IMG/VR virus record: IMGVR_UViG_3300037067_008087
Span: 1-64,000 of that record
Length of the DNA stretch: 64,000 nt
Strand: one strand, 5' to 3'
Source of the DNA: a virus
Lineage: Duplodnaviria > Caudoviricetes
Position 1 is the first letter of the stretch. Each line of letters opens with the position of its first letter. This document shows positions 16,245-40,776 of this stretch, piece by piece. A model generated the notes under the pieces. The model made no database searches, was not told where the DNA came from, and saw only the letters and a program-made list of their open reading frames with translations. The position numbers and the translations under genes are program-made.

Positions 16245-16724
16245 ATGTTAAAAAAAGGATACTTTCTTAAAGTTATTTTTATAATTTTACTCACTGAAAC
16301 AACCGCAGAAAATACCATGACTCCATTCCTTAACCTTGAAAAACAGGAGCTTATCGCTGAAGAGATGCGAATTAATAATGAGGTTGCAAAAATAGCCGGG
16401 ATTATTAAACACAAAGAAAGCAGGGGAAATTATCATCTAAGCGGTGGATCGGGTGAATATGGGGCTTATCAGTTTATGCCATCTACTTGGTATGTTTATT
16501 CTATGGAGGTTTATGGTAAAATAACACCAATGACAGAGGCTAATCAGGATGAGGTTGCTGTTTATGCTATTAAAAAGCTACTTGAAAAACACAATCCTGC
16601 TGAAATTGCCGCCATATGGAACTCCGGTAAGCCCACTTGGGAAGGGAGGAAAGGTGTTAATAAGTATGGGATAAAATATGATGTAGAGGCTTATGTATTG
16701 GATTTCTTAACTTTATATAATTAA
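16245..16724 (+). CDS. Lysozyme-fold/lytic transglycosylase protein with N-terminal hydrophobic segment
   Basis: KESRGNY...GAYQF...WNSG. Confidence 0.75.
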   Translation: MLKKGYFLKVIFIILLTETTAENTMTPFLNLEKQELIAEEMRINNEVAKIAGIIKHKESRGNYHLSGGSGEYGAYQFMPSTWYVYSMEVYGKITPMTEANQDEVAVYAIKKLLEKHNPAEIAAIWNSGKPTWEGRKGVNKYGIKYDVEAYVLDFLTLYN

Positions 16725-17982: not shown

Positions 17983-19278
17983 ATGTTAGAAAAAATACCA
18001 CCACAAGCAATAGACATTGAAAAAGCTGTCATAGGCGCTATTATAATTGATAGTAATGCCATTTATGATGTGGTTGATGTGTTGAAGCCGGAGTCCTTTT
18101 ACGCTCCGGCTAATCAACTAATTTATTCTGCTATTTTAGACTTGTACCACAAGAACAATCCTATAGACCTACTTACTGTTACTGAACAATTAAGAAAAGC
18201 AGGTAAACTTGAAGAGGCTGGGGGAGCCGTATATGTAACGGGAGTAACATCTGATGTGGTAAGTACAAGGCATTTAAGGGCTCATGCTGCTATTGTGGCA
18301 GATAAAGCTATAAAAAGGGAATTGATAGCCATTAACACTGAACTTCATGATGCTTGTTATGAAGACGAAGAGGATGCAGATGATATTTTAAACACGTTAG
18401 AATCTAAACTTTTATCTATATCTATAACTGGTAAAAGCAAAGGCCCTTCCACTATAAATATAGGGCTTAAAAAAGCGGTTGTAGACATAGAGGGATATAA
18501 AAAAGGCACACTAGCTGGGATTAGAAGTGGGTTTTATAGGTTAGACAAACTAACTGGTGGTTGGCAGAAAAGCGACCTCATAATAATAGGGGGCAGGCCT
18601 TCGCAGGGTAAAAGCCTTTTGGCAATTAAACATATAATGGAGTGTGGAGTGCCATCCCTATTCTTTTCTATAGAGATGAACCAAACAGCCATATCTACGC
18701 GCATGATATGTATGGAGTCAGGGCTTGGGAGTGATGATATAAGAAGAGGCCTTACTGATGATGAATTGGGTCTTGTAGACAGGGCTATATCTAAACTTGA
18801 AAAACTGCCAATTCTTATTGATGACACTCCGGCTATTCACATAACAGAACTTATAGCCAAAGCGAGAAGGGCTAAGTTAAAGCATAATATAGGCCTTGTT
18901 GCTGTTGATTATATACAAAGAGTGACGGCAGACAGGAAATATCGTGGTGATAGTAGGGCATCTGAAGTTGGTATAATTACGGGTGCGTTAAAATCATTAG
19001 CCAAAGAAATTGATGTCCCCGTTATAGCCCTTAGTCAATTAAATCGTTCTATAGAAAGAGGGGGCACACGTAAACCCATGTTATCTGATTTAAAGGAGAG
19101 TGGCGATATAGAGCAAGATGCTGATCTAGTTATCTTTGTCCACCGTCCATCATATTATGGTGATGACTCTGTGCCTGAAGATTCAATAATACTTGATGTC
19201 GCAAAACACCGCAACGGCAGGCTAGGAGAAATAATGATAAAAAAGACAAATAATTTCTCAAATTTATTGGATTATTGA
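17983..19278 (+). CDS. dnaB: Replicative DNA helicase
   Basis: KIPPQAIDIEKAVIG, Walker A GRPSQGKS, VDYIQ, ALSQLNR, LKESGDIEQDAD, KHRNG. Confidence 0.97.
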   Translation: MLEKIPPQAIDIEKAVIGAIIIDSNAIYDVVDVLKPESFYAPANQLIYSAILDLYHKNNPIDLLTVTEQLRKAGKLEEAGGAVYVTGVTSDVVSTRHLRAHAAIVADKAIKRELIAINTELHDACYEDEEDADDILNTLESKLLSISITGKSKGPSTINIGLKKAVVDIEGYKKGTLAGIRSGFYRLDKLTGGWQKSDLIIIGGRPSQGKSLLAIKHIMECGVPSLFFSIEMNQTAISTRMICMESGLGSDDIRRGLTDDELGLVDRAISKLEKLPILIDDTPAIHITELIAKARRAKLKHNIGLVAVDYIQRVTADRKYRGDSRASEVGIITGALKSLAKEIDVPVIALSQLNRSIERGGTRKPMLSDLKESGDIEQDADLVIFVHRPSYYGDDSVPEDSIILDVAKHRNGRLGEIMIKKTNNFSNLLDY

Positions 19279-19314: not shown

Positions 19315-19641
19315 ATGGAAAAGGTAAAAATTGTAGGAGTCTTCCAGAAAACATCAAAAAATAACAAGACTTATTATGAAATACAACTACAGGATGGGCG
19401 GAAAGGCACATCTTGGGACGCTGAGTTTCAGAACAATGTAAATAAAGAGGTTGCTATTGATGTAACATCAAATAAAAAAGGCGACATTACCTACCTTAAT
19501 TTCGCTTTGGTAAAAGAAAGTGCAAGCAGTGGAGGCAATACCGCATTAAGGTTAGAGTGTTTAAAACTTGCATTAGCTTATGTGAATGATGGAAATCCAT
19601 TTACTATGGCTGATTCATATTATGAATGGGTTATTAAATGA
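19315..19641 (+). CDS. Possible ssDNA-binding protein
   Basis: 108 aa, beta-rich, between helicase and nuclease. Confidence 0.4.
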   Translation: MEKVKIVGVFQKTSKNNKTYYEIQLQDGRKGTSWDAEFQNNVNKEVAIDVTSNKKGDITYLNFALVKESASSGGNTALRLECLKLALAYVNDGNPFTMADSYYEWVIK

Positions 19642-20441
19642 TACCAATAAACCATGATTTACAAGGTAAGCAGATAAACTACCTTGATAATAGAGCTTAT
19701 CTAAGCACTCGCGGAAGTTATTACCCAAGCGTCACAACCGTACTTAACATAATAGATAAGGGAGAGCAATACAGGGATTGGCTTATGTCTAATGGATATA
19801 ATGCTGATTATAAGATGATAAAAGCCCAAGAGATTGGCACTAAGGTACATGGCTTAGTTGAAAGGTTTAACTCTAACCCCGACGACACCATCTTATGTAT
19901 TGAATATGATGAGAATGGAAGGCCAAGAAACATGTATGACAAAAGAGTGTGGGAAATGTTCTCACGCTATGTTAATTTCTATGATAGATTTAAGCCTGAG
20001 TTATTAGCCGTTGAGCAGATTGTGGTTTCTGATAATTACCAATTAGGGGGCACTATAGACCTCGTTTTTAGGCTTAACGGGCTTATATACTTAGCCGACA
20101 ATAAAACAGGGGAGAACTTGCATAACACCCAAAGACTACAACTTGCCGCTTATGCTGTTATGTGGAATGAAGCATTTCCTGACTATAAAATAGATAAAAT
20201 AGCTATACTTCATCTTAACGCTAAAACAAGAAGCGATGGGAAGGCTGGTTCTATTCAGGGAAGAGGTTGGCAGTTAAAAGAGATAGGTGGCGAAAATGAA
20301 TACAATAAGTTATTCAAGGTATTCATGAACTCATACGATGTTTGGAGATTTGAAAATCCAAACTGGAGACCATTAGTTTTAGAATTACCGGATAGATTTA
20401 AAAGAGGAGACTATGACACAGCAAGAGAAGAATCAAATTAA
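19638..20441 (+). CDS. PD-(D/E)XK exonuclease
   Basis: YPSVTTVL, GTKVH, GTIDL...ADNKTG, QLAAYA. Confidence 0.85.
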   Translation: MIPINHDLQGKQINYLDNRAYLSTRGSYYPSVTTVLNIIDKGEQYRDWLMSNGYNADYKMIKAQEIGTKVHGLVERFNSNPDDTILCIEYDENGRPRNMYDKRVWEMFSRYVNFYDRFKPELLAVEQIVVSDNYQLGGTIDLVFRLNGLIYLADNKTGENLHNTQRLQLAAYAVMWNEAFPDYKIDKIAILHLNAKTRSDGKAGSIQGRGWQLKEIGGENEYNKLFKVFMNSYDVWRFENPNWRPLVLELPDRFKRGDYDTAREESN

Positions 20442-20576
20442 GGAAGCCAAAATGAAATATAAGTATGCCCTTAAACATAGAGATGTTTACAAAATCCAAA
20501 GAGACGAAATACTAAACGCAATAATTACATCCCCCACTCCTAATTGGGGGAGCCTGATAATCAAAGTGACATACAT

Positions 20577-21377
20577 ATGATCCATTTTTTTTGCCCCTTA
20601 GGTGGTAAAGCAGGATGGGATGATAATGAGTTAAGATATATGTTGAGAAGCCTTGAAAAGAACGTGGACGCGGAATTTGATATAACCGTGTATAGTGATC
20701 ATAACGTCCCGTGGCTTAGGAATGTAAAGTTTAAAATTATAGACAGGCCAAGAGACGGCAACTATGAGAATTTCTGGGACACACTTAATAAGATTTATTC
20801 TTATTCTGTAGCGCATCGGCACTCTAAAATGGACACATTCATTTATATTTATGATGATGTTGTATTATTAAAGAAATCTAGAGTAGGAGATTTATCTGAA
20901 TTGTTTAATGTAGCATTACAGGAAGATATTATTGATAACCAAAAGAGAAATAAAACGAAGCACGGACGTACTATAAAAAAGGCATTAGAGTTAACTAATG
21001 GCAAATACAACTACGAAACACACATGCCTAGACTATATCACGCCAATATAGTATTAGAGGTGTTTAAATTATATAACGTATTTTCATGTGATATACCGCC
21101 ATCATTCGCCACGCTATACTATAATCACTTAGACACAGCCCCCACTTTATTGAAAAACACCAGAAACAAAAGGGTTTCATTTTGTTTTGAAGATGAAGAT
21201 AGCACAGGATCAGTAACAGCCGTAAATGAAGGAGAAATAGATATATTTTGTAAGAATAAGATGTGGTTGCATTATAACGACAAAGGATTAAATTTTGCCC
21301 CAAATGGACAACAGATACTTAAGAATTATATAATGAAAATGCTTCCTAACCCGTCTAAATTTGAATTATATGTTTAG
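20577..21377 (+). CDS. Stealth-like sugar-1-phosphate transferase
   Basis: NELRYMLRSLEKN...VPWL and FIYIYDD resemble Stealth CR2; ATGA-coupled start at 20577. Confidence 0.6.
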   Translation: MIHFFCPLGGKAGWDDNELRYMLRSLEKNVDAEFDITVYSDHNVPWLRNVKFKIIDRPRDGNYENFWDTLNKIYSYSVAHRHSKMDTFIYIYDDVVLLKKSRVGDLSELFNVALQEDIIDNQKRNKTKHGRTIKKALELTNGKYNYETHMPRLYHANIVLEVFKLYNVFSCDIPPSFATLYYNHLDTAPTLLKNTRNKRVSFCFEDEDSTGSVTAVNEGEIDIFCKNKMWLHYNDKGLNFAPNGQQILKNYIMKMLPNPSKFELYV

Positions 21378-22293
21378 CGCTGTAATTACAACCATTCAGG
21401 AGCCAACCAAGGAGACGAAAGAACTTGTAAAAAAATTAGAAAGGCCGTTGATAGTAATAGGGAATAAAAAGACACCAGAGTATAATCTTCCCGGAGCCAA
21501 GTTTTATTCTTTAGACGATCAAAAGAAATTAGGCTTTCAGGTAAATAATTATTTACCAGTTAACTCATATACAAGGAAGAATATAGGCTATCTGATAGCT
21601 ATGAAGAATAAATCCACGGCTATATTCGACGCAAATGATGATGCAGCCCCCTGTGATGGGTGGGTTAAGAGAGATATAATATCTAAAAGCGTTGAAGCTA
21701 TTGAATATAAATGGACAAACGTTCTCAAGTGGTTTATGTATGACTTATGGCCGTCTAAGTTTAGGGTGGCGCGTATTAATATGTTGGATTTTGCCTTAGG
21801 AGACATCAAAGATGGCGTGTACCCAATACAATATGGGATGGTTGATGGTGATAATTGGGCTTTTAATGAATCTGTGCCATTAAGCGTTAGGGCGGGGAAC
21901 TGGTGTTTGTTTAATGGCAGAAATACATGGTGGTTCCCTAAGGCGTATCCATTGATGTACCTGCCGTCATATTGCAGCTCAACGCTTGCTGAAATATGGA
22001 GAAGCTTTGTAGCCCAAAGGTGTTTATGGGAAATGGGGCATCAAGTTTTGTTTTATACGGGGCACATGTTTAAATCAGGGAGACTCAGCAGCCCAGAAGA
22101 TATTGAAGAAGAAATAGACGGATACTCTGTGGATGACAAAATACTCAGTATATTGAGCAATTTATCGCTGAATGGCGATAGTTGTGATAATATGAGGGCT
22201 TGTTACGAAGCGCTCATAAAGGAATATATAATACCAGACGAAGAAATGTATTTAATAGATGCATGGATAAATGATATAAATAATTTAATATGA
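21370..22293 (+). CDS. STELLO/DUF288-like glycosyltransferase
   Basis: VITTIQEPT, LPVNSYTRKNIGYL, DANDD, IWRSFVAQRCLW. Confidence 0.75.
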   Translation: MFSAVITTIQEPTKETKELVKKLERPLIVIGNKKTPEYNLPGAKFYSLDDQKKLGFQVNNYLPVNSYTRKNIGYLIAMKNKSTAIFDANDDAAPCDGWVKRDIISKSVEAIEYKWTNVLKWFMYDLWPSKFRVARINMLDFALGDIKDGVYPIQYGMVDGDNWAFNESVPLSVRAGNWCLFNGRNTWWFPKAYPLMYLPSYCSSTLAEIWRSFVAQRCLWEMGHQVLFYTGHMFKSGRLSSPEDIEEEIDGYSVDDKILSILSNLSLNGDSCDNMRACYEALIKEYIIPDEEMYLIDAWINDINNLI

Positions 22294-23006
22294 AAAATAT
22301 ATCAACTGAATTTACGTATGATGATAAGATGCCTTTTGAAATGCGTATAGACCAAGATTCTAAATGCCCAATAATTTGCCATATAGATTGTGGGCATGGC
22401 GGGATGGTTAATGGGGTTTATCAAACTAATGGCAAAATGTGTGATCATGGAGACTTTGTGTTTTACGAGGGGGTTTTTAATAGGGTAATAGGGAAGGCGC
22501 TTGCTGTTAAATTTTATCAGGGAAACATATCTTATAATTTTACAACTACATCTAATTACGACACCCCTCTTCCTGAAAGAATAGAAAAGGTGGGGCGATT
22601 GGTGAAGCATTACAAGAGCCATAAACACATATTGCTATCATTACACGCAAATGCATTTGGGGTTGAGTCTACGTCTGGTTTTGAATATTTTACAACACCC
22701 GGAGTGACAGAATCTGATTATGCCGCCAATTTCTACTATCCTTATATCCTTGACTTAGGGATGAAGATGAGAATAAGCGCTCCTAATCCCAATGAATATG
22801 ACAAAGAATCAAGATTTTATGTGATTTTAAAAGGAGAAGAGGTGGGTTGTGTGTCTTTATTGTTTGAGGCTGGATTTATGACTAACAAAGAAGAGGCGCT
22901 TAAAATGCTAACTCCAGAGTTCCAAAATGCCTATGTTAATGCATTATATTTAGGGACACAAGATATCATAACCCAAATAGATGTTTACGGTAGTATAAAA
23001 AAATAA
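22290..23006 (+). CDS. N-acetylmuramoyl-L-alanine amidase (Amidase_3)
   Basis: DCGHGG, EGVFN, SLHAN, FEAGFMTN. Confidence 0.88.
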   Translation: MKNISTEFTYDDKMPFEMRIDQDSKCPIICHIDCGHGGMVNGVYQTNGKMCDHGDFVFYEGVFNRVIGKALAVKFYQGNISYNFTTTSNYDTPLPERIEKVGRLVKHYKSHKHILLSLHANAFGVESTSGFEYFTTPGVTESDYAANFYYPYILDLGMKMRISAPNPNEYDKESRFYVILKGEEVGCVSLLFEAGFMTNKEEALKMLTPEFQNAYVNALYLGTQDIITQIDVYGSIKK

Positions 23007-23010
23007 GAAT

Positions 23011-23553
23011 ATGAATAATAGAGGAGTATGGGATGAGTCAGAAGCAAAGAGCAGGCATGTATTCGACTTAGGATTATGTTTTGGGATAGCAGATTATATA
23101 TCCCAAAATGATACTATAGTTGATATAGGGTGTGGGAACGGCGCCTACGTGAAAGCATTAAAAAAAGTGGGCTTTGATATAATTGGCTTTGATGGCTGCT
23201 TGATAACACCTGAAATAACTGAAGGGTTGTGTGAGGTTTGTGATTTTTCAGAAAGAGCTGATATAGGTGTATATGATGTTGTTTTGTGTTTAGAGGTTGG
23301 AGAGCATATACCAGCTGAGTATGAGAATATTTTTATTGATAATGTTTGCCGCGCTACCAAGAAGTTGTTAATATTAAGCTGGGCTATAGAAGGACAGGGA
23401 GGGGACGGGCACGTTAATTGCCGTAATAATGATTATATTATCAATAAGATAGAGCAGGAGGGACTTAAGTATGATAAATTAATGGGAGATAAATTAAGGG
23501 GGCTTGCTTTCCATGAGTGGTTTAAAAATACAATAATGTGTTTTAAGAAATGA
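23011..23553 (+). CDS. Class I SAM-dependent methyltransferase
   Basis: VDIGCGNG, CLEVGEHI, GQGGDGHVN. Confidence 0.85.
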   Translation: MNNRGVWDESEAKSRHVFDLGLCFGIADYISQNDTIVDIGCGNGAYVKALKKVGFDIIGFDGCLITPEITEGLCEVCDFSERADIGVYDVVLCLEVGEHIPAEYENIFIDNVCRATKKLLILSWAIEGQGGDGHVNCRNNDYIINKIEQEGLKYDKLMGDKLRGLAFHEWFKNTIMCFKK

Positions 23554-24179
23554 TAACGGTGTTAATATGCGTCCACTCCCGTGATGACCTTCATGATAAG
23601 CTATTCGGGGAGGCCCTTGATAGTTTACTCGCTCAAACCTATAAGGAATTTAAAACAGTTATTGTGTTTGATGAATGTTGGGATAACACCTATAAGGTAG
23701 CCGAAAAGTTGACTAACTACATACAGGTTATAAAGACCCCCAAAACCGGATTATCAGACGCTAAGAACGAGGGTATAAGATACATAAACACAGATTGGGT
23801 TGCGTTCCTTGATGCAGACGACATGTGGCTCCCTGAAAAATTAGAGAAACAGGTTAAACACCTACAGAATGCGGACATTATTTCTACTCATTATTGGTTT
23901 AGAAAGATAGGCGATAAAGAGGAAATAACTGAGTCTTGTTTTTCTACAAAAGATTATGTCACTCATGATCAAATAGCCGCAAGGCTCCCTGTAGAGAATT
24001 GCCTCTGTCATGGTTCTATTCTCATGAAGCGCAGTATCTTTGATAAGGTTAAATACGGTAATCACAAGGGCATAGAAGATTGGGTGTTATGGAAAGACTG
24101 CCTTGCGCTCGGATATAGATTTTATCAGTTACCTGAAAGATTATATGTTTACACAACAAACACAAGCGTAGAAAGATGA
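23550..24179 (+). CDS. GT2 glycosyltransferase
   Basis: SLLAQTY, VAFLDADD, IEDW. Confidence 0.9.
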   Translation: MITVLICVHSRDDLHDKLFGEALDSLLAQTYKEFKTVIVFDECWDNTYKVAEKLTNYIQVIKTPKTGLSDAKNEGIRYINTDWVAFLDADDMWLPEKLEKQVKHLQNADIISTHYWFRKIGDKEEITESCFSTKDYVTHDQIAARLPVENCLCHGSILMKRSIFDKVKYGNHKGIEDWVLWKDCLALGYRFYQLPERLYVYTTNTSVER

Positions 24180-25261
24180 CGATACACGAACAAAAGGCTG
24201 AGACCATAATTAAGTACTCAAATAAGTACGGATTAGATACCATGATTGAGACCGGCACTTATTATGGAGACATGGTGGAGTCCCAACGAAACAATTTCAA
24301 AAAAATAATATCTATTGAACTTGGTGACGGGTTGGCAAAGAAAGCACAAGAACGGTTTGATGCTTATCCCCATATAAAGATACTTCAGGGCGACAGCGCT
24401 GAGGTTATTATGCAGCTATTACCAAGGGATCGTACATTGTTTTGGTTAGACGCCCATTGTTCCGGTAATGATACGGCGGGAAGTGATGAGGATAACCCCC
24501 TTATTCACGAATTGGAGGCGCTTGTAAAAGATAAAAACCATGTTATATTAATAGATGACATTCATGATAAAAGGCAGGACTTAGAGGACATAGTGGAGGG
24601 GATGATTGTCTCTTATGAACCGGGGATTATGGTTTTAGAACCCCGTGAAATAAGTAATGTAAATTTTTCTATTACCACAGCGTGTAATAGAAGTTGTAGA
24701 AACTGTTCCTATAACGCCCCGAATAAGAGCGTGAAACATCTTACAGAGCAAGAAATACGCCATGCTGCCCCTTATTTTAGTGGTTGTTCTATTACTATTA
24801 CGGGAGGAGAGCCGACAATACACCCTAAATTCCTTGAATTAGTGCCCAAGTTTGAAGAAATATTCGGACGCAAGGTGTCTATCGAGACTAATGGGTATAT
24901 GTTAAAAAAACATCCTGACATATTCAGGCACTTTAAGAATATCCACATTGCTAACTATATAAAAGGAGATTACTTTACCGCCAAAGAAGATAATACGGCG
25001 GTTATTAAGTGGTTTGTAAAGAATTACCCTGACATTAATGTATGTGTAGACGAGATGCGATCACACAGGGATAGAAATACTTGGGGCAAGAGGATTTGCC
25101 CTGCCGGGACTGCTATAACCATTGCGTATATGGGCGGGTTAGTATATCCATGCTGTATAGGAGATGGTCATATGGGCGCTATAGGTATAGGGCTGGATGG
25201 ATGGAGAGATAAAATACGTAATACGCCCCTTAATTGTCATAAATGCTTTTTCTCGCTATGA
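24176..25261 (+). CDS. Methyltransferase-like plus radical SAM fusion
   Basis: IETGTYYGD...FWLDAH N-domain; TTACNRSCRNC, TGGEPT, ETNG, C-terminal Cys cluster. Confidence 0.8.
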   Translation: MTIHEQKAETIIKYSNKYGLDTMIETGTYYGDMVESQRNNFKKIISIELGDGLAKKAQERFDAYPHIKILQGDSAEVIMQLLPRDRTLFWLDAHCSGNDTAGSDEDNPLIHELEALVKDKNHVILIDDIHDKRQDLEDIVEGMIVSYEPGIMVLEPREISNVNFSITTACNRSCRNCSYNAPNKSVKHLTEQEIRHAAPYFSGCSITITGGEPTIHPKFLELVPKFEEIFGRKVSIETNGYMLKKHPDIFRHFKNIHIANYIKGDYFTAKEDNTAVIKWFVKNYPDINVCVDEMRSHRDRNTWGKRICPAGTAITIAYMGGLVYPCCIGDGHMGAIGIGLDGWRDKIRNTPLNCHKCFFSL

Positions 25262-25893
25262 AAGTAATAAGTTATTGTTTGTGGGGTAATAACCCTAAGT
25301 ATATAGATGGGTTGTACCGCAATGTCTGTATTATAAAAGAGAAGCTCCCGGGATATAGGGTCTATTTATATGTAAATAAGAATTATTATATTGACATTGA
25401 TGGGTTTACGGTAATAAGAACCAATCATGACGGAAACTATCTAATGTTTGACAGATTCAGACCAGTCGGAGATATAACATATAGTAGAGATTTAGACTCC
25501 CCTATATTAGACAGAGAGATAGAGGCGATGAAAGAATTTGAGGCTTCTGATAAAGGCATCCATGTAATGAGAGATCACCCGTATCATCGCGCGCGTATTC
25601 TAGGAGGCACATTAGGGATAAAGAAGGGAGCCGTAAGGGGGATTAATAAACTAATAGATAATCATATTTATAAATACAATGATGAGTGGTTTAGCGACCA
25701 GATATTCCTAAATGACATAATTTATCCTATGGTAAAGGATAATATGCTTATACACTCATCTATTAACTTCTACACCGATGAAAAACCAACTCCCTTTCCA
25801 ACAGAGAGAGTGGGAGATGAGTTTGTGGGAATGATATTGCCGAGGGTTTATGAACATCATGCCGTATTAAGAAATGCTGAAAATATTATTTAA
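25255..25893 (+). CDS. GT-A-like glycosyltransferase
   Basis: KVISYCLWG, SRDLDS, MRDHPYH, ILGG, DQIFL; start set at MKVIS. Confidence 0.6.
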   Translation, partial: AMKVISYCLWGNNPKYIDGLYRNVCIIKEKLPGYRVYLYVNKNYYIDIDGFTVIRTNHDGNYLMFDRFRPVGDITYSRDLDSPILDREIEAMKEFEASDKGIHVMRDHPYHRARILGGTLGIKKGAVRGINKLIDNHIYKYNDEWFSDQIFLNDIIYPMVKDNMLIHSSINFYTDEKPTPFPTERVGDEFVGMILPRVYEHHAVLRNAENII

Positions 25894-28800
25894 TTTTCCA
25901 ACAAGAGAGAGGCCTGATAGGTTTAAGAAGAGTCTTGATTCAATCCTTAATAATTGCGAGGGCGATTTTAGGGTGATTGTTAAATTAGATAGAGATGACC
26001 CTACGATAAGCCGCTATTTAGCTCTAGTGGACGAATACCGTAATTATCCTATTATATGGAATATAGGAGATTCAAAAAATAAGGTTAATGCAATTAATAG
26101 AGATATATCTAATCTTGAATGGGATGTTGTTTTTTGTTGGGCTGATGATATATTTGCCATATACAAAGGCTTTGATAATATTATACGGGGTTCTTTTACA
26201 GACATAAACTCTTGGCCGTGCTTTTGGGATGGATACAGGAAGGATGATCTTATTACCATGTGCATTGTAAGTAGGGTTAATTACGATAGGTTCGGGTATG
26301 TATATTATCCGGGCTATGAATCCCTGTACTGCGACAACGAAATGACTGAAATAGCGAGGATTATGGGCGGGTTGAATGTTATACGCCATCCGCAAATAGT
26401 TAAGCATAATCACCCCGCGCTAAATACCAATGTGCGATTCGATGAACTAAACACTAAAAACGACAAAAGTTCTTCCGTTGACAAGAAGTTATTTGAAGAG
26501 CGTAAAAATAACAATTTTTACATAAACAATAACGATGAGTTGTTAGCCTTAAAATACCAGCAGGAGCCATTAGAGTACGAGGGTTTAATATACAAATATT
26601 TTAACCCGAAAAAGAAATTAACCATTTTCGAGGTAGGAGCCTGCCAATGTGAGGATACCCTGAAATTACAGAAGTTATTCCCTAATTCTGATATTCATGC
26701 GTTTGAGCCAATACCGGACAATTACAACAAAGGGCGCCAAAAGATAAGCGGCATCACTCTAAATAATATAGCTGTATCAGACCACAAGGGGGAAGATGAT
26801 ATGTATGTAAGCTCTGGGGCTCCCTGTGGCAGCGGAGAGTTTTATGGTAACAAAAGCAGTTCTTTATTAGCCCCATATAAACACCTTGAGATATTTGAGT
26901 GGTGTAAGTTCAATAAGAAGGTACGAGTTAAAGTAGATACTATCGCCAACTACATAACCAAGAAAAACATAAAGCACATTAATTTCATCCATATGGATGT
27001 TCAGGGGGCTGAGTTACAGGTACTAAAAGGATGCGGGGCGTTTATTTCTAATGTGGATATAGTGTTTTTAGAGGTGGCAAGAATAGAAATGTATAAGGAT
27101 CAAGCCTTATTGCCGGACATAAACGACTTTTTTATTTCTAATGGCTTTGAATTGATATATCAGAATGTTAGCGATGTTGCAGGTAATCAATTATGGGCGA
27201 GGATTAAATCGGATTTGCTATTTACTTCCATGCCAAAATATTGTATTAATCTTGCAAAGGAAGTTGACCGAAGAGTTGGCGTGGCTGGTGAATTTGAAAA
27301 GTTAGGGCTATCTATAAATTTCTATAACGCCATAGATGGCAAGAAGCTGGAGCCAAGTAGAACCATGACGGCGAATGAGATTGCATGCTCTAGGTCTCAT
27401 AGAAACATAATTAAAGAAGCAAAGAGGCAAGGCCTTGAGTATGTATATATATGCGAGGATGACATTAAGTTCTGTGATGATTTCTGGAAAAGAATAAGGC
27501 GCATAGAGTCTTGTGGGTTAGATTATGATATGTTATTTTTAGGAGGGCACTTTAGTGATAAAGAGGCTATGCCCATAGAATCATCCCCTACAATACATGA
27601 TAATATATATAGGGTATATAGATTAGCAGGGGCATATTCTTATATTGTTAAAAGTACCGCTTATGATAAAATACTTAATGCGCCAGAGAAATTTGCTATA
27701 GATGCTTTATATTGTTATTTTATTCAGAAACAAGTTAAAGCCTATGCGTTCATCCCATTCTTAACAACTTGTGCGCCTTGTTTCTCTAATATAACCGGGG
27801 TATATATGGAGTACCCCCATGTAAAATGGTATTATTCAAAAAAAATAGAAATGATTACTTATACGAAGTTAGGTAAAAACGGCAGGCTTGGGAACCAGTT
27901 GTTTCAAGTAGCCGCAGCTATTGCGATAGCTAAAGATAATAAAACAACGGCTAAATTGCCCGTTAACTGGCAATACCGTAATTATTTCAATGTGCCAGAC
28001 AAATATTTTGGAGATACGTCACCGGATTTATTGGTGAATGTATCAAATTATCATTATGACATAAGCAAACTGGAGAAGGTTGACTTTGAAAAATGCGTTG
28101 ACCTATTTGGGTATTTCCAATCAGAGAAGTATTTTAAAAATATTAAAAAAGATATCATAAAATGGTTCACGCCCAAGGTGGCTAGGTTAGATGAGTGGTC
28201 TGTTGGTATGCATATACGCAGAGGAGATTTTGTGGGTAATAAGGCTCATATAAACCTAAAGCCAGAATATTATATTAGCGCTATTGATAAGTATTTTAAT
28301 GACCCACGCTATAAGTTTTATATATGCACTGATGATCCAGACTATGCAAGATTCCATTTCAAGGGTGATCGGTTTATAATAGCAGATAGAACGGAACTTG
28401 AGGACTTTGATGTTATGGTATCATGCCAAAATCACATCTTAGCCAATAGCTCATTTAGTTGGTGGGGGGCTTATTTAGCACAAAGCAAGAGGGTTATTCG
28501 CCCCGCTAAATCTTTTAGGGGTGTGCTTGATCCTCTTAGTGAGAAAGACCTGTGGCAGCCTGAGTGGATAACCCATGAAGATCACCGGATAGACCTATCT
28601 GATGTTACTTTTATCACTACATTTAAGTACGATCACCCAGATAGGATAGAGAACCTTGATATATTTATGGATCAGCTTGGGGCTTATAAAACTAACATCC
28701 TTATAGGGGAGATGGGAGGGCAAATTGTAAAAGAAAAGTATCCTAAAAACTACGTAGACTTAAATTTTATAAAAGTCTTCCATCATACCCGCAGTAATAA

Positions 28801-30154
28801 CATATTGGCAGCATTGGCTAAAACAGAAATAGTTATCAATATAGACTGTGATATTGTTGTCCCCCCCAATCAGATATATGAGGCGGTTAAGATGCTGAGA
28901 AACGGCTATGAGTTCGTTTTCCCGTATGAGGGGATATTTGTGAGGGTGGGGAATGGGTCTAATGACCGGAACCAAGATTATATAAAATTAATTAAAGAGG
29001 CTGGAGACATAGGGATATTAAAGGGAATAGAGTTTTTTGGCATGTCTTCCGACAATATAGAGAGCCATGGTGGTGTGTTTGGATTTAGGAAGGGTGTTTA
29101 CTTTAAGTACGGAGGGGATAACGAAAATTATGTTTCCTACGCACCAGAGGACACTGATAGAGCCTATAGATTCAGAACGCTGAGTAAATACGGGAGGGTA
29201 AGCGGTTCCCTTTATCACTTAAATCATTTTTGTGGTGTGGACAGCACTAATATGAATCCATATTTTAACGCATCAGTCAAGGAGTGGGGAAAGGTAAGGG
29301 CTATGAATAAAAAACAGCTCCTTGCTTACATTAAAACATGGGAGTGGGATTATAGTAAAGTAAAAACACTTAAGGATATAGATAAGGGGTCATGCATAAA
29401 AACAACTAAAAATAACATCACCGATGTTACATTTATCATACCTGTTAAATACGATCATCCAGACAGAAAAGAAAACCTTAATTTATGTATTAGTTTTTTA
29501 CGATATTGGTTTGATACTAATATAATAATAGGGGAACAGGGTGGCGATAAGTTCTCTTACGTAAAGGATATCGGGTGTGAATATGTGAAGTTTGACAGCA
29601 TGCATGAATTTCACCGCACACAGATGATAAATAAACTTACATCTATAGCTAAAACACCAATAGTTTTTAATTGGGATGCCGATGTTGTGGCTCCCCCGAA
29701 TCAGGTACTGGACGCGGTAAATTATTTAAGAAACGGGGGCGAGTTTGCTTATCCTTACAACGGAACATTTATTAAAATAGATAAGGACAAAGCGTCACAG
29801 TTTGGTATATCACTGGATATATCAATGCTTTTTTCGGCAGAACACCAAAAAATAGTGTCAGATTCTGATGGTGGGGCTATAGGATATAAAAAGGACGCCT
29901 TTTTTAGAATAGGGGGAGAAAATGAACATTACATGTCCCATAGCCCTGAAGACAGGGATAGAAAATACAGAATAGAGACCTTGGCTGAATACACAAGGAT
30001 ACCGGGGCCGTTGTTTCATATAAACCACTATAAAAGCAAAGACTCAATTCATGATAATCAATATAAGGTTATTAATAAAAGCGAATGGAGGAAGGTGGGA
30101 CAAATGAGTAAGGCAGAATTAACTAAATATATAAAAACATGGAAATGGATTTAA
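25874..30154 (+). CDS. Six-domain glycan-modifying protein: GT-A, FkbM MTase, GT25, GT11, GT-A, GT-A
   Basis: WADD; FEVGAC/AFEP/HMDVQGAE; CINL..DRR/ACSRSH/EDD; GRLGNQ/GYFQSEKYF/HIRRGD/NSSFSWWGA; two KYDHPDR...D.D...PED repeats. Confidence 0.88.
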   Translation: MLKILFNFPTRERPDRFKKSLDSILNNCEGDFRVIVKLDRDDPTISRYLALVDEYRNYPIIWNIGDSKNKVNAINRDISNLEWDVVFCWADDIFAIYKGFDNIIRGSFTDINSWPCFWDGYRKDDLITMCIVSRVNYDRFGYVYYPGYESLYCDNEMTEIARIMGGLNVIRHPQIVKHNHPALNTNVRFDELNTKNDKSSSVDKKLFEERKNNNFYINNNDELLALKYQQEPLEYEGLIYKYFNPKKKLTIFEVGACQCEDTLKLQKLFPNSDIHAFEPIPDNYNKGRQKISGITLNNIAVSDHKGEDDMYVSSGAPCGSGEFYGNKSSSLLAPYKHLEIFEWCKFNKKVRVKVDTIANYITKKNIKHINFIHMDVQGAELQVLKGCGAFISNVDIVFLEVARIEMYKDQALLPDINDFFISNGFELIYQNVSDVAGNQLWARIKSDLLFTSMPKYCINLAKEVDRRVGVAGEFEKLGLSINFYNAIDGKKLEPSRTMTANEIACSRSHRNIIKEAKRQGLEYVYICEDDIKFCDDFWKRIRRIESCGLDYDMLFLGGHFSDKEAMPIESSPTIHDNIYRVYRLAGAYSYIVKSTAYDKILNAPEKFAIDALYCYFIQKQVKAYAFIPFLTTCAPCFSNITGVYMEYPHVKWYYSKKIEMITYTKLGKNGRLGNQLFQVAAAIAIAKDNKTTAKLPVNWQYRNYFNVPDKYFGDTSPDLLVNVSNYHYDISKLEKVDFEKCVDLFGYFQSEKYFKNIKKDIIKWFTPKVARLDEWSVGMHIRRGDFVGNKAHINLKPEYYISAIDKYFNDPRYKFYICTDDPDYARFHFKGDRFIIADRTELEDFDVMVSCQNHILANSSFSWWGAYLAQSKRVIRPAKSFRGVLDPLSEKDLWQPEWITHEDHRIDLSDVTFITTFKYDHPDRIENLDIFMDQLGAYKTNILIGEMGGQIVKEKYPKNYVDLNFIKVFHHTRSNNILAALAKTEIVINIDCDIVVPPNQIYEAVKMLRNGYEFVFPYEGIFVRVGNGSNDRNQDYIKLIKEAGDIGILKGIEFFGMSSDNIESHGGVFGFRKGVYFKYGGDNENYVSYAPEDTDRAYRFRTLSKYGRVSGSLYHLNHFCGVDSTNMNPYFNASVKEWGKVRAMNKKQLLAYIKTWEWDYSKVKTLKDIDKGSCIKTTKNNITDVTFIIPVKYDHPDRKENLNLCISFLRYWFDTNIIIGEQGGDKFSYVKDIGCEYVKFDSMHEFHRTQMINKLTSIAKTPIVFNWDADVVAPPNQVLDAVNYLRNGGEFAYPYNGTFIKIDKDKASQFGISLDISMLFSAEHQKIVSDSDGGAIGYKKDAFFRIGGENEHYMSHSPEDRDRKYRIETLAEYTRIPGPLFHINHYKSKDSIHDNQYKVINKSEWRKVGQMSKAELTKYIKTWKWI

Positions 30155-30714
30155 TACGAATATTAGTAGATGTGGATCATGATGTGGACGGTAATTTGAA
30201 CGTGTCCCCGATAATAAGCGTCCCAGAACAGCCCTTTGATATTAATAAGTTATATGATTGTTTTAATAAATTAAAAATAACCATACAGGACAATAATTTC
30301 ATAGGGAAATATTGTGTGGTTTTAAAAATGGTTAATGGTAGTTATGAAATGAAGAATGTATTTTATCCGCGATCCATAAATATGGAAAGGATACATAATG
30401 ATGTGGCTATGCATTTTGGTCTTTCACCAGACGACCTATTATCAAAAACTAAAAAAAGAAAGATAGCAAAGCCAAGACAATTTTCAATGGCGCTCATGAG
30501 TTATTTACTTAATTCACCCACTGTTGTTGTCGGGGGATTCTATGGGTTAGACCATGCGACAGTTATTTTTGCAAGAGACAAGGCAATACCGGCATATTAT
30601 TTATCCAGAGATAAAGAAATAACTGACGCCATATCTTATTTTAATACCGCATACGGGTTGGCTAAGACAATAAACGACCATATAAAGGAAATTTTAGGAA
30701 AGCCTGTAAATTAA
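30139..30714 (+). CDS. Protein with C-terminal DnaA domain IV-like HTH
   Basis: VAMHFGLSPDDLLSKTKKRKIAKPRQ...DHATVIFA. Confidence 0.75.
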   Translation: MEMDLIRILVDVDHDVDGNLNVSPIISVPEQPFDINKLYDCFNKLKITIQDNNFIGKYCVVLKMVNGSYEMKNVFYPRSINMERIHNDVAMHFGLSPDDLLSKTKKRKIAKPRQFSMALMSYLLNSPTVVVGGFYGLDHATVIFARDKAIPAYYLSRDKEITDAISYFNTAYGLAKTINDHIKEILGKPVN

Positions 30715-30766
30715 TATGTTACAAATTGTGTGTTTTTCATAGTGTTTAAGTATTAGGTTGTTAAGG

Positions 30767-30798
30767 AAAACCCCGGAAGTCATATCTGGGGTTTTTTT
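30767..30798 (+). terminator. Intrinsic terminator
   Basis: AAAACCCC...GGGGTTTTTTT. Confidence 0.8.
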
Positions 30799-34302: not shown

Positions 34303-37300
34303 TTATTTATACTGATTTACTAAGTCATATAACTGTTTATATGTTACCACCCTTATTTCATCCCCGGCAACCTGTTTAGTTCTAATATAGTCCAATATGT
34401 TTTCAAGTATTGTGTAATATTCATATTCCTCCAAATCCCACGTTCCCGGATGGCCATATATACCGAGTGTCGTCCTCTTGGTTGTTATAATTGCATCTAT
34501 ATGACCTTCAATAGTTGTTTGATTAGGAATATCAAATCCTTGTGCATAAAACAAATCCCACCTATTAATAGGTATTTTTAGCCTGTTGTTTGTAACTAAT
34601 GTTGCACTTACTGAACGTCCAATATTAAAATAATCTAATACCGCAGAAAAAGTTACATCATCAGCAGCTCCTCCGGGATATGCTTTAGATACAATCCTGT
34701 AATCAATAGCTGTATCGTAATAATTTACTGCCTTTTCATAATAGGTAGCTAATTGTTCAGTAGTATAATTTGCTGATGTTTCATGAAATTCTATTCTTTC
34801 TGGCGGATATTCTCCATTTATTGATAGAGTATGTAATCCTATTTCGTTATCGTTTTTAATTAATGATTTGATCTGTGTGTTTGTAAGATAATGACCGTAA
34901 TTAATAAAAAATGTTTGCGGCACACTATGAGGCACAAATACAGTGTCTAATAACGGAATTTCCGTTGGCGTTGTATGATCCCAACTAAATACCACAAGCG
35001 GAAAATCAACATTTTGAATTAACACATAATCGGTATTGTATTGAGCATGATCGCTGTCGCTTACATATACATCATCTTTGAAAATTATTAAATCCTTGAT
35101 ATATCCTGTCGTTCTATAATTATAGCCTCCATCATAATAATTGGAATCCATCTTATTATAGTATAGATGTGGCCTCCAATTATCAAAATCCGTGAATTTT
35201 AACGGATCACCAACGAAAATCGTATCTAAAACCTCTCTGACAGAATTTGCTTCACTTAGTGATTCATCGCCTGTTGCAGTGAATATTTGATTTTCCGTAT
35301 ATTCGCCAAAATATCCTTCCGTTGTGTTTTCGATAAAATAATTTTTATCAGCCACACAATATCCGCTTAATAATAAAGTACTTAATTTAGGCTTTTCAAG
35401 GGTGAAAGGGAAGTCAATATCACAAGCATATCTTAACCATGTTGATCCATCCTGAACATTCCTTAATGGCTTGCCTAAAACATCGTTAGTCCCCGCCAAT
35501 AATCCCGGTATTATATAATATTCCTCTACCAATACCGAATTAATCTCAAATGATGATCTTGCACTCCCATTAAAATATAAATATAACGTGGTTTCTCCGG
35601 CGGTGAAATTTGCAACATGGCTTCTGTTTACCAAATCCCACGGAGCTACTGTAATTAATCCACCTCCTGCATTATATCCTGCATATAGAGCAGTACCTAT
35701 AATTGTTAATCTTGTATATATTCCTGACGTGATCGTATTGTTTCTTTGCAAATACGGGCGTGTCGTTGCGGATGCTGTTGGTTGTTTAGTTACCTCTGCC
35801 GTTAAGTTATTATTTGAAAAGGATAGAGTACCAGTGCCACTCGTCCCCCAAACTGCCGACCATCCACTTGTAGATGTTGAAAAATCTGATTGGTATTTAA
35901 CTTTTGTATCATTATAACCATATTGAGCCAGATAGAAATAATTATTCTGAGTTGCAACATTCGCCTCTGCCAAACCACTACACAAAGCATGATGACTATT
36001 ACCAGACACGTCATAAGAAGTCGTTGGTATATTAGTTTCAATTATTGGCTCACAGAATGGAATTATTGCCCATATAACATCTTCCCTCCAAATACTAATA
36101 CCATATACAGTATCCCCTTCTGCTATCCTTAATGTCCCGTCAACCGGAATAGTCGGCAAATCACTGCCATCAACAACAGATATAGAATCAGTAGTTAAAA
36201 CTCCTGTAATTGTATAATCTAAATTACCAGTTATTGATGTTCTTGCTGAAGCGTTCTTTAAAGCCGCATTATTCTCGTAAAATGTGGCGTCTATCCATTC
36301 ATTTGTTGTAAAATTAAAAGTATCTGCAACAAAAACATATATATTAACAGCAACCGTAATAATATTTGAACTCGCACTCACTCCCGCTGAATTTACCGCC
36401 CTCACCCTGTAATAGTAAGTTGTGTTCTCGGTTAGTCCGGTAACTGATTGAGAAGTCCCGCTTACCGTCAGATTGTTATACCCAGTTACAAAGGTTGCAA
36501 AGTTACTTGCCGTTGATACGTCCAGCCTGTAACTCGATGCCCCCGATACTGCAGTCCAATTAGCAGTAAAACTTGTGTCGGTTACGGAGGTGGCTGCCGT
36601 TGCTACGGGGGCAGACATATACACCATAAACGAATTACCACCCTTCATAAACTTACCCTCTGACTTCATAAACTGTCCACCGCTACCCATGAATCCACCA
36701 GTAGGTGTTTCCGGTGCTGCTGCGACTGTTACCGTTACCGTCCACTCCTGAGTTGATTCGTCCAGTGCTGTGACTGTATAAACAACCAGAGAAGTAAAGT
36801 CTGTTGCTGTTCCGCTTGTAGGTGAAATTGTCGCTCCTTCACTTACTGTTATTGTAGGCTGTAAAGCTGTTACTGATGTGCCGTATTCGACTTCTATACT
36901 TACAGTATGAGCAGTTGAGTTTATTGTGGCTGATCCGGTTTGGGCTGAGAGGGTGAAGGTTAGGATGTTAGTGGCGGTGCTGTCGGCTGAGCCGTATTCG
37001 GAATAACCGAGGTCAGGGGCAAGCCCGTTGTAAGGCAATCCCACGTCAACACCAGCGTCTATTAAAACAGAACCTTCTTTTAACGTTAGGAACGTTATGT
37101 CTGGAAGTGAACCATCCGCTTTTCTGGAGGCTGTTAGTTCCGCAAACATAGAAGCTGAATCTAATATATTAAAGTTATCATTCAGCCCCGAATATGCCCA
37201 ACTAAGCGTATCATTGTATTCCCAATAAGGTATTTCACCGTTCGTAAATAACCATGTGTTATGATCTCCTCTCGCATAGCTGGGTGGGCCATCACACGCT

Positions 37301-38349: not shown

Positions 38350-39113
38350 AGATACTTTTCTTCTAACCAATCATATATTGTAGATTGTGTAGTCCCGTCA
38401 TCAACAACACTTCTGATAATAACTGCTTTTACCTCTATATTTGAATTATACGAGCCACCGCCATTACTCCCAAGATAAAAACCAGCCATATCATTACTCC
38501 CAGCATTTCCCGTTACGGCGGTATTTTTATTAATCTGCAAAGAGGAGCTTTCGCCATTTAAAATTACACGAACAATGCCGTATGTATCTAAAGCTAAATC
38601 ACCATCATCTTGCAATACAGTCCCAGCATATAATCTTAAATATCCTGAATTATCAGTTGATCCTTGTTGTAAAGAACCGTATTCGCTGGCATTATTACCA
38701 TCAAACACAAAATCCCACCGAGACCAAGTAACTTGTTTAAAGACAATATAAATGGTTATTGGTTGATTTAAAGTATATACCCCACCAAGAAAAGCGCCTT
38801 CTCCATTAAACAATATTCCATTTGCGTTTAAAACAGGACGTTCAACCCAAACTACAGGTACAAGGTCTAAGTCGTTACCAGATTCAAAATAGTCTCTCCA
38901 TTCTTCAACATAAGTAGGATGGTCAACGGTCATGGTAAACGTACTTGATTCATCGTACAAATACATCGCTACCGTATTATTATCAAGTTCCTCTGGATAC
39001 TCCCCTCCTTCTTCCCCAGCACTCTGCACCCCCCTATAAAACGGATACCTCCCTATCTGCCCGTTAACTGAAACAAGCAGAAATAATAAGGGTATTATTA
39101 TTAACTTTTTCAT
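38346..39113 (-). CDS. Signal-peptide-bearing LamG/concanavalin-like fibre protein
   Basis: MKKLIIIPLLFLLVSVNG-Q; TIYIVFKQ, LQINKN, FYLG. Confidence 0.65.
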   Translation of the reverse strand: MKKLIIIPLLFLLVSVNGQIGRYPFYRGVQSAGEEGGEYPEELDNNTVAMYLYDESSTFTMTVDHPTYVEEWRDYFESGNDLDLVPVVWVERPVLNANGILFNGEGAFLGGVYTLNQPITIYIVFKQVTWSRWDFVFDGNNASEYGSLQQGSTDNSGYLRLYAGTVLQDDGDLALDTYGIVRVILNGESSSLQINKNTAVTGNAGSNDMAGFYLGSNGGGSYNSNIEVKAVIIRSVVDDGTTQSTIYDWLEEKYL

Positions 39114-39116
39114 GGC

Positions 39117-40403: not shown

Positions 40404-40419
40404 GTTTTTATGTGTTGTT

Positions 40420-40776
40420 TTAATTCTTCAACCATTGTATGAACATTATAATATATGGTATAATGGTTATGCCCAATCCTATTATCCATTTGGTGTCCCT
40501 ACTAGACTCTTTCTTTTTTGCATAAGCCCTTTCCTTTTCTGTCGTTGTAACTTCTATTTCTTTCTTGAAATCTGAAATGGATGATATCTTTTCTGACAGG
40601 GCGCTCATTGTATGGCATAGCTCTTCAGACCTATCTTCGTTTATCTTCAGCCGCACATTTAATTCAGTAACAGCAGAAATAACTCCCTTTTGGCCATTAC
40701 CCTCCAGCACTTTTTTATGCCTGTCGAGGGTTTCCTTCATTGCCCCTATTTCTTGTTCAAACTTGCAAACTTCCAT
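40420..40776 (-). CDS. Coiled-coil plus C-terminal TM protein (holin/XhlA-like)
   Basis: WIIGLGITIIPYIIMFIQWL at the C-terminus. Confidence 0.5.
   Translation of the reverse strand: MEVCKFEQEIGAMKETLDRHKKVLEGNGQKGVISAVTELNVRLKINEDRSEELCHTMSALSEKISSISDFKKEIEVTTTEKERAYAKKKESSRDTKWIIGLGITIIPYIIMFIQWLKN

Follow-up and report, generated by a model that had tools for sequence, protein, structure and literature searches.

A compact phage gene cassette predicted to build a methylated glycan, and where that glycan may end

A cluster of eight genes at positions 20577–30154 of the viral contig IMGVR_UViG_3300037067_008087 (IMG/VR; Duplodnaviria, Caudoviricetes) almost certainly serves to build a complex methylated sugar chain. 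The window referred to here is the stretch of 64,000 nucleotides from position 1 of this 82,396-bp contig; coordinates beyond it are those of the contig as a whole. We tentatively read the locus as a mobile cassette of soluble cytoplasmic enzymes whose glycan would end on the phage particle, an acceptor that we favour, with due reserve, over the glycans of the host envelope. Drawing on S-adenosylmethionine (SAM) and on nucleotide sugars supplied by the host (UDP-hexoses, GDP-fucose or a different GDP-6-deoxyhexose), the enzymes would assemble, stepwise, a branched, O-methylated hetero-oligosaccharide, probably with a 6-deoxyhexose and a phosphodiester-linked sugar. Placed on the phage's own particle, such a chain would likely provide shielding or altered host recognition. 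Phage and giant-virus glycosylation is known in principle; distinctive here are a six-domain fusion protein colinear with an operon, the addition of Stealth, STELLO and methyltransferase–radical SAM enzymes, placement in a replication block without sugar-activation genes, and co-occurrence with apparently exported, sequon-rich fibres.

Enzyme content of the cluster

The eight open reading frames (ORFs) are co-directional on the + strand, lie between an exonuclease gene and a DnaA-like gene, and join by overlaps of 4–20 nt or by a 4-nt gap (Table 1), confirming the tight and mostly overlapping packing described in the initial annotation. The enzyme types named there, about eight transferase-like and three methyltransferase-like domains, were right in kind and slightly low in number. 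We count about nine glycosyltransferase (GT)-type domains (Stealth-type, STELLO-like, GT2, small GT-A, the N-terminal GT of the largest protein, GT25, GT11 and two GT2/Glyco_transf_7C-like domains, hereafter GT2/7C) and about four methyltransferase or radical SAM domains (Methyltransf_23, a TylF-like domain, the radical SAM domain fused to it, and FkbM). Catalytic motifs were checked for degeneration and are intact (EDD, HxRRGD, SSFSWW, DCD, DAD, FLDADD, VDIGCGNG, CNRxCxNC and GGEPT). A hydropathy scan found no hydrophobic segment in the cluster proteins, in agreement with the lack of signal peptides noted earlier, so that the enzymes appear to be soluble. The same scan found no multi-pass membrane protein on the contig, which thus seems to be without a flippase, polyprenyl-phosphate GT, polymerase or priming transferase, the membrane parts by which seroconverting Gtr-type or Wzy-dependent glycan systems are recognised. 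Nucleotide-sugar synthesis genes, previously reported as missing from the window, are missing from the whole 82,396-bp contig as far as the Epimerase/dehydratase and NTP_transferase (nucleotidyltransferase) families are concerned.

The last gene of the cluster encodes a 1426-residue protein with six domains: an N-terminal GT, FkbM, GT25, GT11 and two GT2/7C-like domains. Conservation of its motifs was judged across its four closest homologues, in which the HxRRGD (H780–D785) and NSSFSWWGAYL motifs of the GT11 domain are invariant, as is the acidic EDD motif (CEDD) of the GT25 domain. Among proteins of solved structure, procollagen galactosyltransferase 1 is the closest to the GT25 domain (E 7e-6). 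The FkbM domain is assigned by Pfam at E 8e-19. Domain 5 was modelled with AlphaFold2 (AF2) at a predicted local distance difference test score (pLDDT) of 91; its best Foldseek matches are the K4CP chondroitin polymerase, beta4GalT1, RmlT (a teichoic-acid rhamnosyltransferase) and ppGalNAc-T, and its profile matches beta4GalT1 at 2.6e-5. Domain 6 is a paralogue of domain 5 (43% identical, alignment A4). Domain 1, for which a PDB sequence search gave no match, is found in homologues P0001 and P0003 and not in P0002 or P0004. Six- or five-domain versions of the protein are rare, amounting to 4 proteins in a large protein collection; P0002, 68% identical, is encoded on an 82.7-kb contig.

The arrangement of these domains recurs elsewhere as separate genes. 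In L011, a contig of another phage, a Stealth-like gene is followed by FkbM, by GT25 and by a gene for a 956-aa fusion of GT11, GT2/7C and a terminal second GT2/7C, which is the order of the domains in the 1426-aa protein. Because of this match, the protein is best described, on comparative grounds, as an operon fused into a single polypeptide. At two further loci (L015:9998–12352 and L097:7998–10337) one protein of ~780 aa fuses GT11 and GT2/7C with a C-terminal Stealth-like domain. Taken together, the colinearity at L011 and these Rosetta-stone fusions place Stealth, FkbM, GT25, GT11 and GT2/7C in a single predicted pathway.

The first gene of the cluster appears, from profile and motifs, to encode a genuine Stealth relative. 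As a single sequence it matched only CR2 in Pfam (Stealth_CR2, 18.4 bits against a cut-off of 39.4), and a seven-sequence profile matched the catalytic domain of GlcNAc-1-phosphotransferase (GNPTAB; E 1.9e-12) and the CpsY exopolysaccharide phosphotransferase (2.3e-5), which bears out the original Stealth-like call. The ELRYSLRS-type CR2 motif and the DD motif following it, by which the family is recognised, are both present, and NNELRYxLRS, NDDxF, HxP and PSxFE are kept among seven homologues. At ~265 aa the protein is far shorter than classical members; the CR4-like PSxFE aligns weakly and CR1 was not detected. The 310-aa product of the second gene was likewise called STELLO-like at the outset, and here the fold and the language-model features agree (Atlas feature score of 0.99 to STELLO/RGP clusters in which 45–78% of the members carry PF03385; template modelling (TM) score of 0.89 for the Atlas model), while sequence comparison does not, as no match was obtained in Pfam (PF03385/PF03214, E≤0.01), PHROG or NCBIfam.

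Four smaller enzymes complete the set. The class I SAM methyltransferase has a conserved motif I (VDIGCGNG). The GT2 enzyme conserves FLDADD and resembles TuaG (1e-18) and EpsE (2e-17) in NCBIfam, each below its own cut-off. The fusion protein that follows combines a methyltransferase-type domain with a radical SAM domain (Radical_SAM 2e-13, 51.3 bits against a cut-off of 29.5; Fer4_12 7.9e-6) in which the CNRxCxNC cluster motif and the GGEPT SAM-binding motif are kept in five homologues. Its C-terminus holds further conserved cysteines (C-P/D-x-G, YPCCIG, CxxCFFS), with no SPASM/twitch model above cut-off. The motifs ETGTYYGD and FWLDxHYSG of its N-terminal domain are what we take to be features of TylF/MycF-like sugar O-methyltransferases; this domain belongs to a large and widespread family of standalone proteins of ~210 aa, fused elsewhere to GT2 or FkbM, and a search across 5.8 billion clusters yielded just 3 proteins with the full TylF-like/radical SAM fusion. 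A viperin-like antiviral role for the radical SAM domain was considered and rejected, given a match restricted to the cluster-binding core, the extra conserved cysteines and the methyltransferase-type fusion. An arsenosugar-type trio (ArsS, GT, methyltransferase) was also rejected, every score being far below cut-off. Finally, the 216-aa protein has no match in Pfam, and a PDB sequence search with its family returned nothing; in the Atlas it sits beside viral clusters labelled 'putative glycosyltransferase', its family keeps a DLD motif without exception, and an AF2 model of moderate quality (pLDDT 69) has a small GT-A fold. The best solved match to this model, a weak one, is domain 1 of A064R from the chlorovirus PBCV-1 (E 9e-7, TM 0.50), followed by the GT8 enzymes LgtC and GlyE.

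Related modules, cassette exchange and host

A search of IMG/VR for GT11 motifs led to at least 553 confirmed viral stretches. Among the best 80 loci, 75 have GT11 next to GT2/7C or fused with it, in phages otherwise unrelated to ours, and homologues of the module often adjoin large structural-type genes in such phages; Methyltransf_23 homologues adjoin it directly at L014, L078, L099, L102 and L103. In about 40 GT11–GT2/7C loci, the 149 proteins lying closest to the module belong most commonly to GT2 (17/149), GDP-mannose 4,6-dehydratase (14/149, best E 6e-155), NAD-dependent epimerases (14/149) and GT25 (14/149), then to DUF5672 (11/149), RmlD-type reductases (7/149) and NAD synthase (7; loci L011–L058). 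GT6, GT10, GT92, FkbM, DegT aminotransferases and cyanophage outer-membrane-protein-like genes are also found. By family content, then, homologous modules sit in a fucose/deoxyhexose glycan context. Among cultured phages, relatives occur in T4-like cyanophages and in some that infect Streptomyces (26–34% identity), with genes annotated as fucosyltransferases or glycosyltransferases beside sugar epimerases.

Evidence for mobility comes from a relative of the phage, G001 (IMGVR_UViG_3300037067_006488, 77 kb, ~70% complete). Structural proteins of the two contigs are 25–37% identical (TerL 37%, capsid 35%, portal 30%). G001 also carries the methyltransferase, GT2, radical SAM fusion, 216-aa GT and six-domain protein, in the same order and with identities of 55, 71, 56, 56 and 57%, respectively. 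Of all phage proteins the terminase is as a rule the best conserved. As the identity of the cassette lies above that of the terminase, the comparison suggests that the common unit, 23011–30154, has been under selection, has been exchanged or retained as a whole, and represents a mobile cassette. The amidase and the STELLO-like gene are outside this unit; no homologue of the latter was found in G001, in which a Stealth-like homologue (31% identity) is located downstream of the cassette. Further relatives proved hard to find. Among 50,697 phage records none was retrieved either with the cluster by megablast or with the capsid protein by tblastn, single-protein scans of viral contigs with the six-domain protein or P0002 gave nothing, and metagenome scans gave nothing useful. 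A TerL-profile scan yielded only 4 further relatives, which are distant (28% identity) and have no homologue of the six-domain protein; all are fragments (one 74% complete).

The amidase, counted with the glycan cluster in the initial annotation, is probably a lysin and a passenger outside the glycan pathway, since its homologue in G001 (43% identity) sits elsewhere, on the other strand, adjoining a TnpB gene. A role in a glycan or peptidoglycan-linked step was rejected for the same reason. A small SLT/transglycosylase-like protein with a hydrophobic N-terminus is encoded in the replication-side block (16245–16724), as a second cell-wall enzyme besides the amidase. The contig has a TnpB/IS605 OrfB-type gene of its own (OrfB_IS605, Cas12f1-like TNB, helix-turn-helix; contig 64675–65865, − strand), flanked by an 809-aa ORF (62230–64659) and a 786-aa gene read as large terminase (65951–68311). 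The TnpB homologue of G001 (36%) is placed elsewhere, next to the amidase.

As to the host, the best matches to the module in bacterial genomes are on contigs of Bacteroidota metagenome-assembled genomes (Sediminibacterium, Niastella, Chitinophagales, Flavobacterium). These contigs carry homologues of the helicase, fibre and giant protein of our contig as well, and are therefore binned phages or prophages, which points to a host in the Bacteroidota.

Genomic setting and possible acceptors

The contig has no exact terminal repeat at its ends and an estimated completeness of ~70% (CheckV). Its + strand carries a replication-type gene block from ~9.3 to 32.9 kb, as annotated with Pfam and PHROG, in which the glycan cluster is located, whereas lysis, fibre, tail, capsid, portal and terminase genes are on the − strand from 33 kb onward. 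In this area the only convincing terminator-like hairpin on the + strand lies just 3′ of the DnaA-like gene, and no comparable + strand site was found from 20.5 to 30.7 kb; the eight cluster genes and the DnaA-like gene therefore look like one transcription unit. A scan for sigma-70 promoters gave matches at chance level and was uninformative. A G+C-rich hairpin, TCCCCCACTCCTAATTGGGGGA (20530–20551), is present within the 135-nt gap directly 5′ of the first cluster gene.

Table 1. Coordinates of the cluster genes, of the domains of the six-domain protein and of adjoining features.
Feature	Position	Strand	Basis or remark
DnaB-like helicase	17983–19278	+	Replication-gene block
PD-(D/E)XK exonuclease	19638–20441	+	Replication-gene block
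Stealth-family (hexose-1-phosphate transferase-like) protein, short form	20577–21377 (alternative start 20544)	+	Profile match, conserved motifs
STELLO/RGP (GT75-like) glycosyltransferase-like protein, 310 aa	21370–22293 (alternative start 21361)	+	Language-model features, Atlas model
N-acetylmuramoyl-L-alanine amidase (Amidase_3)	22290–23006	+	Pfam 6.7e-15; phrog_435 endolysin
Class I SAM methyltransferase (Methyltransf_23)	23011–23553	+	Pfam 5e-9
GT2 glycosyltransferase (TuaG/EpsE-like)	23550–24179	+	Pfam Glycos_transf_2 2.7e-24
TylF-like methyltransferase-type domain (residues 1–about 150) fused to compact radical SAM domain	24176–25261	+	Pfam, motifs
Small GT-A-type glycosyltransferase-like protein, 216 aa, virus-only family	25258–25893 (alternative start 25243)	+	AF2 model, Atlas neighbours
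Six-domain protein	25874–30154	+	
Domain 1, N-terminal GT-like	25874–26518	+	phrog_14945 glycosyltransferase 8.8e-10
Domain 2, FkbM-family methyltransferase	26519–27208	+	PF05050 68.8 bits (cut-off 22.7); TIGR01444 68.9 bits (cut-off 37.7)
Domain 3, GT25	27209–27838	+	PF01755 55.3 bits (cut-off 24), 1e-14
Domain 4, GT11 (alpha-1,2-fucosyltransferase family)	27839–28579	+	PF01531 63 bits (cut-off 23.9), 3.6e-17; phrog_2644 3.6e-46
Domain 5, GT2/7C-like GT-A	28580–29368	+	phrog_15655 3.6e-60; DCD conserved
Domain 6, second GT2/7C-like GT-A	29369–30154	+	phrog_1721 galactosyl transferase 2e-11; DAD conserved
DnaA C-terminal helix-turn-helix-domain protein	30139–30714	+	Bac_DnaA_C 1e-14; no glycan enzyme; start overlaps end of six-domain gene by 16 nt
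Terminator-like hairpin	30764–30798	+	14-bp stem, then T run; probably ends the transcription unit

This position among replication genes (DnaB helicase, PD-(D/E)XK exonuclease, DnaA-like protein) makes it worth testing whether DNA is the acceptor, with the transferases building an oligosaccharide on a hydroxylated base (5-hydroxymethylcytosine, 5hmC; 5-hydroxymethyluracil, 5hmU; or 5-hydroxycytosine, 5hoC) to escape restriction. Phage GT-A and GT-B enzymes related to those of lipopolysaccharide (LPS) and teichoic-acid synthesis do place mono- to trisaccharides on 5hmC (bioRxiv 10.1101/2023.12.21.572611), and polyarabinosylated 5hoC is made by phages (PMC13326640). Such pathways need a thymidylate-synthase homologue, or a C5-methyltransferase together with a 5mYOX/TET dioxygenase (bioRxiv 10.1101/2023.12.21.572611; PMC13326640). 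A C5 cytosine methyltransferase homologue is indeed encoded on the − strand (3829–4704, with 4691–5128; PF00145, 116 bits), but this sole candidate is split between two frames and contains one in-frame TGA, which may reflect a pseudogene, a disruption of the gene or faulty sequencing. An HNH endonuclease gene is found directly upstream of it. No thymidylate-synthase homologue (PF00303, E≤1) was detected on the contig or G001, both ~70% complete, and no TET/JBP-like dioxygenase (PF12851, E≤1) on the contig. The annotated contig proteins include no dCTPase or nucleotide kinase, and neither thymidylate synthase nor a TET-like family is among the 25 commonest families beside homologous modules. 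We also know of no report of fucosyltransferase, Stealth or FkbM chemistry on DNA, which counts further against this explanation. Glycosylation of DNA is thus very unlikely, owing to the missing thymidylate-synthase and TET-like genes; we weighed the fucose-pathway neighbours elsewhere as well and refrain from placing it lower because both contigs are incomplete. The preference for glycan building over base modification expressed in the initial annotation is upheld by enzyme families, neighbours elsewhere, the lack of these two genes and the solubility of the enzymes. As candidate acceptors that annotation had put forward a lipid-linked glycan of the host and virion proteins.

With the phage particle as acceptor, two routes may be envisaged. 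In one, which chloroviruses and some mycobacteriophages follow, capsid or tail proteins would receive their sugars directly in the cytoplasm; in the other, the chain would be built on the host undecaprenyl-phosphate (Und-P) carrier and transferred by the host's general O-glycosylation machinery to exported, sequon-rich phage fibres. We infer that nine transferases and four tailoring enzymes are more in keeping with making an entire chain de novo than with changing a single sugar on a host glycan, and for PBCV-1 it is established that fused GT–GT–methyltransferase proteins glycosylate the capsid (PMC7826918). Five fibre, lectin or glycanase-type proteins of the contig have signal-peptide-like N-termini (34303–41208 and contig 69228–74203). 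Six exported-type proteins, namely these five and the product of 72656–74203, have 10.4 copies of the Bacteroidota O-glycosylation motif D-(S/T)-(A/I/L/V/M/T) per 1000 residues, compared to 3.2 in all others, with an excess over shuffles in 3 of the 6 (p 0.002–0.013). One exported-type protein (1143 aa) combines GH5, LamG, PL14 and CUB domains. Proteins that leave by the Sec pathway cannot receive glycans in the cytoplasm before export, and a fibre glycan, if present, must therefore use the host carrier route. Bacteroidota make their O-glycans on Und-P at the cytoplasmic face, and methylation of these is common (PMC12871550). It is tempting to speculate, on what are admittedly long odds, that the phage reprogrammes the general O-glycosylation of its host, specifying an outer glycan on Und-P that host flippase and ligase would deliver in the periplasm to Sec-exported fibres and depolymerases. 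If true, the host-recognition gear of the particle would wear a virus-designed sugar coat made via a hijacked host pathway.

Several observations weigh against the particle as acceptor. The capsid proteins of the contig (59443–60924) and G001 lack a Ser/Thr-rich or Gly-x-Ser C-terminal tail, ending in ...WVLMRSAK and ...WVLMYK, respectively, and S/T-rich tails are missing from the other structural proteins as well. No protein-specific initiating transferase was recognised, and for the lipid-linked route no phage-encoded priming phosphoglycosyltransferase, flippase or ligase, which would make it wholly host-dependent. The cluster is found in the replication block (exonuclease to DnaA-like gene) and outside the structural operon. 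To this may be added that the contig of this uncultured phage is only about 70% complete. Lastly, the enzyme families are equally typical of LPS, capsule and host glycoprotein synthesis.

This last point leads to the host envelope as the target instead: during infection the enzymes would lengthen or modify a lipid-linked glycan of the host (O-antigen of LPS, capsule or the general O-glycan bound for host surface proteins), the particle being no target, for receptor masking, a block to superinfection or less sticking of progeny to debris. Going by the Pfam descriptions, GT25, GT11, GT2, Stealth and FkbM are the classical families of LPS, capsule or O-glycan synthesis, cyanophage-type loci place homologous modules beside outer-membrane-protein-like, porin and nucleotide-sugar genes, and a location among replication genes would allow early or middle expression, suiting host modification. 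Und-P-linked host glycans are built by soluble enzymes at the cytoplasmic face (PMC12871550), and the cyanophage literature assumes, without measurement, that such islands modify the cell surface (PMC12801897). We nevertheless regard envelope remodelling as a possibility on the unlikely side. No integrase or lysogeny gene was noticed among the annotated (larger) contig proteins, a survey that was not exhaustive, and serotype conversion would be of less benefit to a lytic phage. Converting phages known so far use one to three membrane-bound enzymes, compared to nine soluble transferases and four tailoring enzymes here. The hydropathy scan of the contig revealed no flippase, polymerase or priming enzyme, and the recurrence of the module in unrelated phages, often beside structural-type genes, also argues against it.

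A further alternative, which we consider improbable, is a product attached to none of particle, envelope or DNA: a glycoconjugate, free or secreted, or a small molecule carrying sugars (for example a methylated oligosaccharide or tailored nucleotide sugar), which would alter host metabolism or signalling. The radical SAM/methyltransferase fusion and the additional methyltransferases do resemble sugar tailoring in natural-product pathways, with core-level matches to BlsE, ArsS and MoaA-type enzymes, and the want of an identified acceptor would fit. Against this, no scaffold-forming or export genes were seen, and GT25, GT11, GT2/7C and Stealth, the core that recurs, belong typically to surface-glycan synthesis.

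Known systems and implications

The closest parallel in design is PBCV-1, whose A064R consists of two GT domains and a methyltransferase and whose A111/114R has three GT domains including a fucosyltransferase (PMC7826918). Both viruses encode soluble multi-domain proteins that fuse successive GTs with a sugar O-methyltransferase, use host nucleotide sugars (as proposed for the phage) and do without membrane machinery. PBCV-1 differs in being a eukaryotic giant virus with three domains per protein, compared to six here, and there is no detectable sequence homology beyond fold; moreover, its acceptor, the capsid protein Vp54, is proven, whereas the phage particle is a candidate acceptor.

In mycobacteriophages Che8, Corndog and Myrna, virion glycosylation cassettes were reportedly described by Freeman et al. 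in 2023; these are said to comprise two to four GTs and to place glycans on the C-terminal tails of capsid and tail-tube subunits. They share with the present cluster phage-encoded soluble GTs and an O-methyltransferase, coating the particle there and possibly here. They differ in that the capsid protein here is without such a tail, the cluster lies in a replication block and the probable host is Gram-negative. Corndog-like C-terminal acceptor tails were sought in the structural proteins and not found.

True homologues are the GT11/GT25/GT2/FkbM islands of the T4-like cyanophages P-SSM2, S-SSM7, S-SCSM1 and S-SCSM2R (PMC12801897), to whose adjacent FkbM, GT11 and GT2-type genes residues 272–899 or 650–1426 of the six-domain protein align by tblastn (26–34% identity). 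Those islands, whose function is also unproven, consist of separate genes with phage-encoded nucleotide-sugar epimerases or dehydratases, whereas the counterparts on our contig are fused, have Stealth, STELLO, radical SAM and other enzymes added to them, and are unaccompanied by sugar-activation genes. DNA sugar-hypermodification clusters likewise have several GTs related to LPS and teichoic-acid enzymes and lie near replication genes; the thymidylate-synthase homologue, or C5-methyltransferase with 5mYOX/TET, that defines them was not found here. Finally, LFG-type O-glycosylation loci of Bacteroidota (PMC12871550) resemble the cluster in adding a species-specific outer glycan at the cytoplasmic face with soluble GTs, including fucosyltransferases, and methyl groups, and the exported phage fibres bear the matching acceptor motif. 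Unlike the phage cluster, which is without flippase or ligase, those loci are chromosomal and include a Wzx flippase.

Virus-directed glycosylation has been proven only for a few mycobacteriophages and giant algal viruses, whereas modules of GT11, GT25, GT2/7C and methyltransferase genes are very common in environmental phages, as the number of viral stretches recovered in a single scan indicates. The locus described here, a compact, fused and sugar-activation-free version in a probable Bacteroidota phage, offers a convenient test case. Its six-domain polypeptide, apparently a natural operon collapsed into an assembly-line enzyme, may be of interest for glycoengineering as well.

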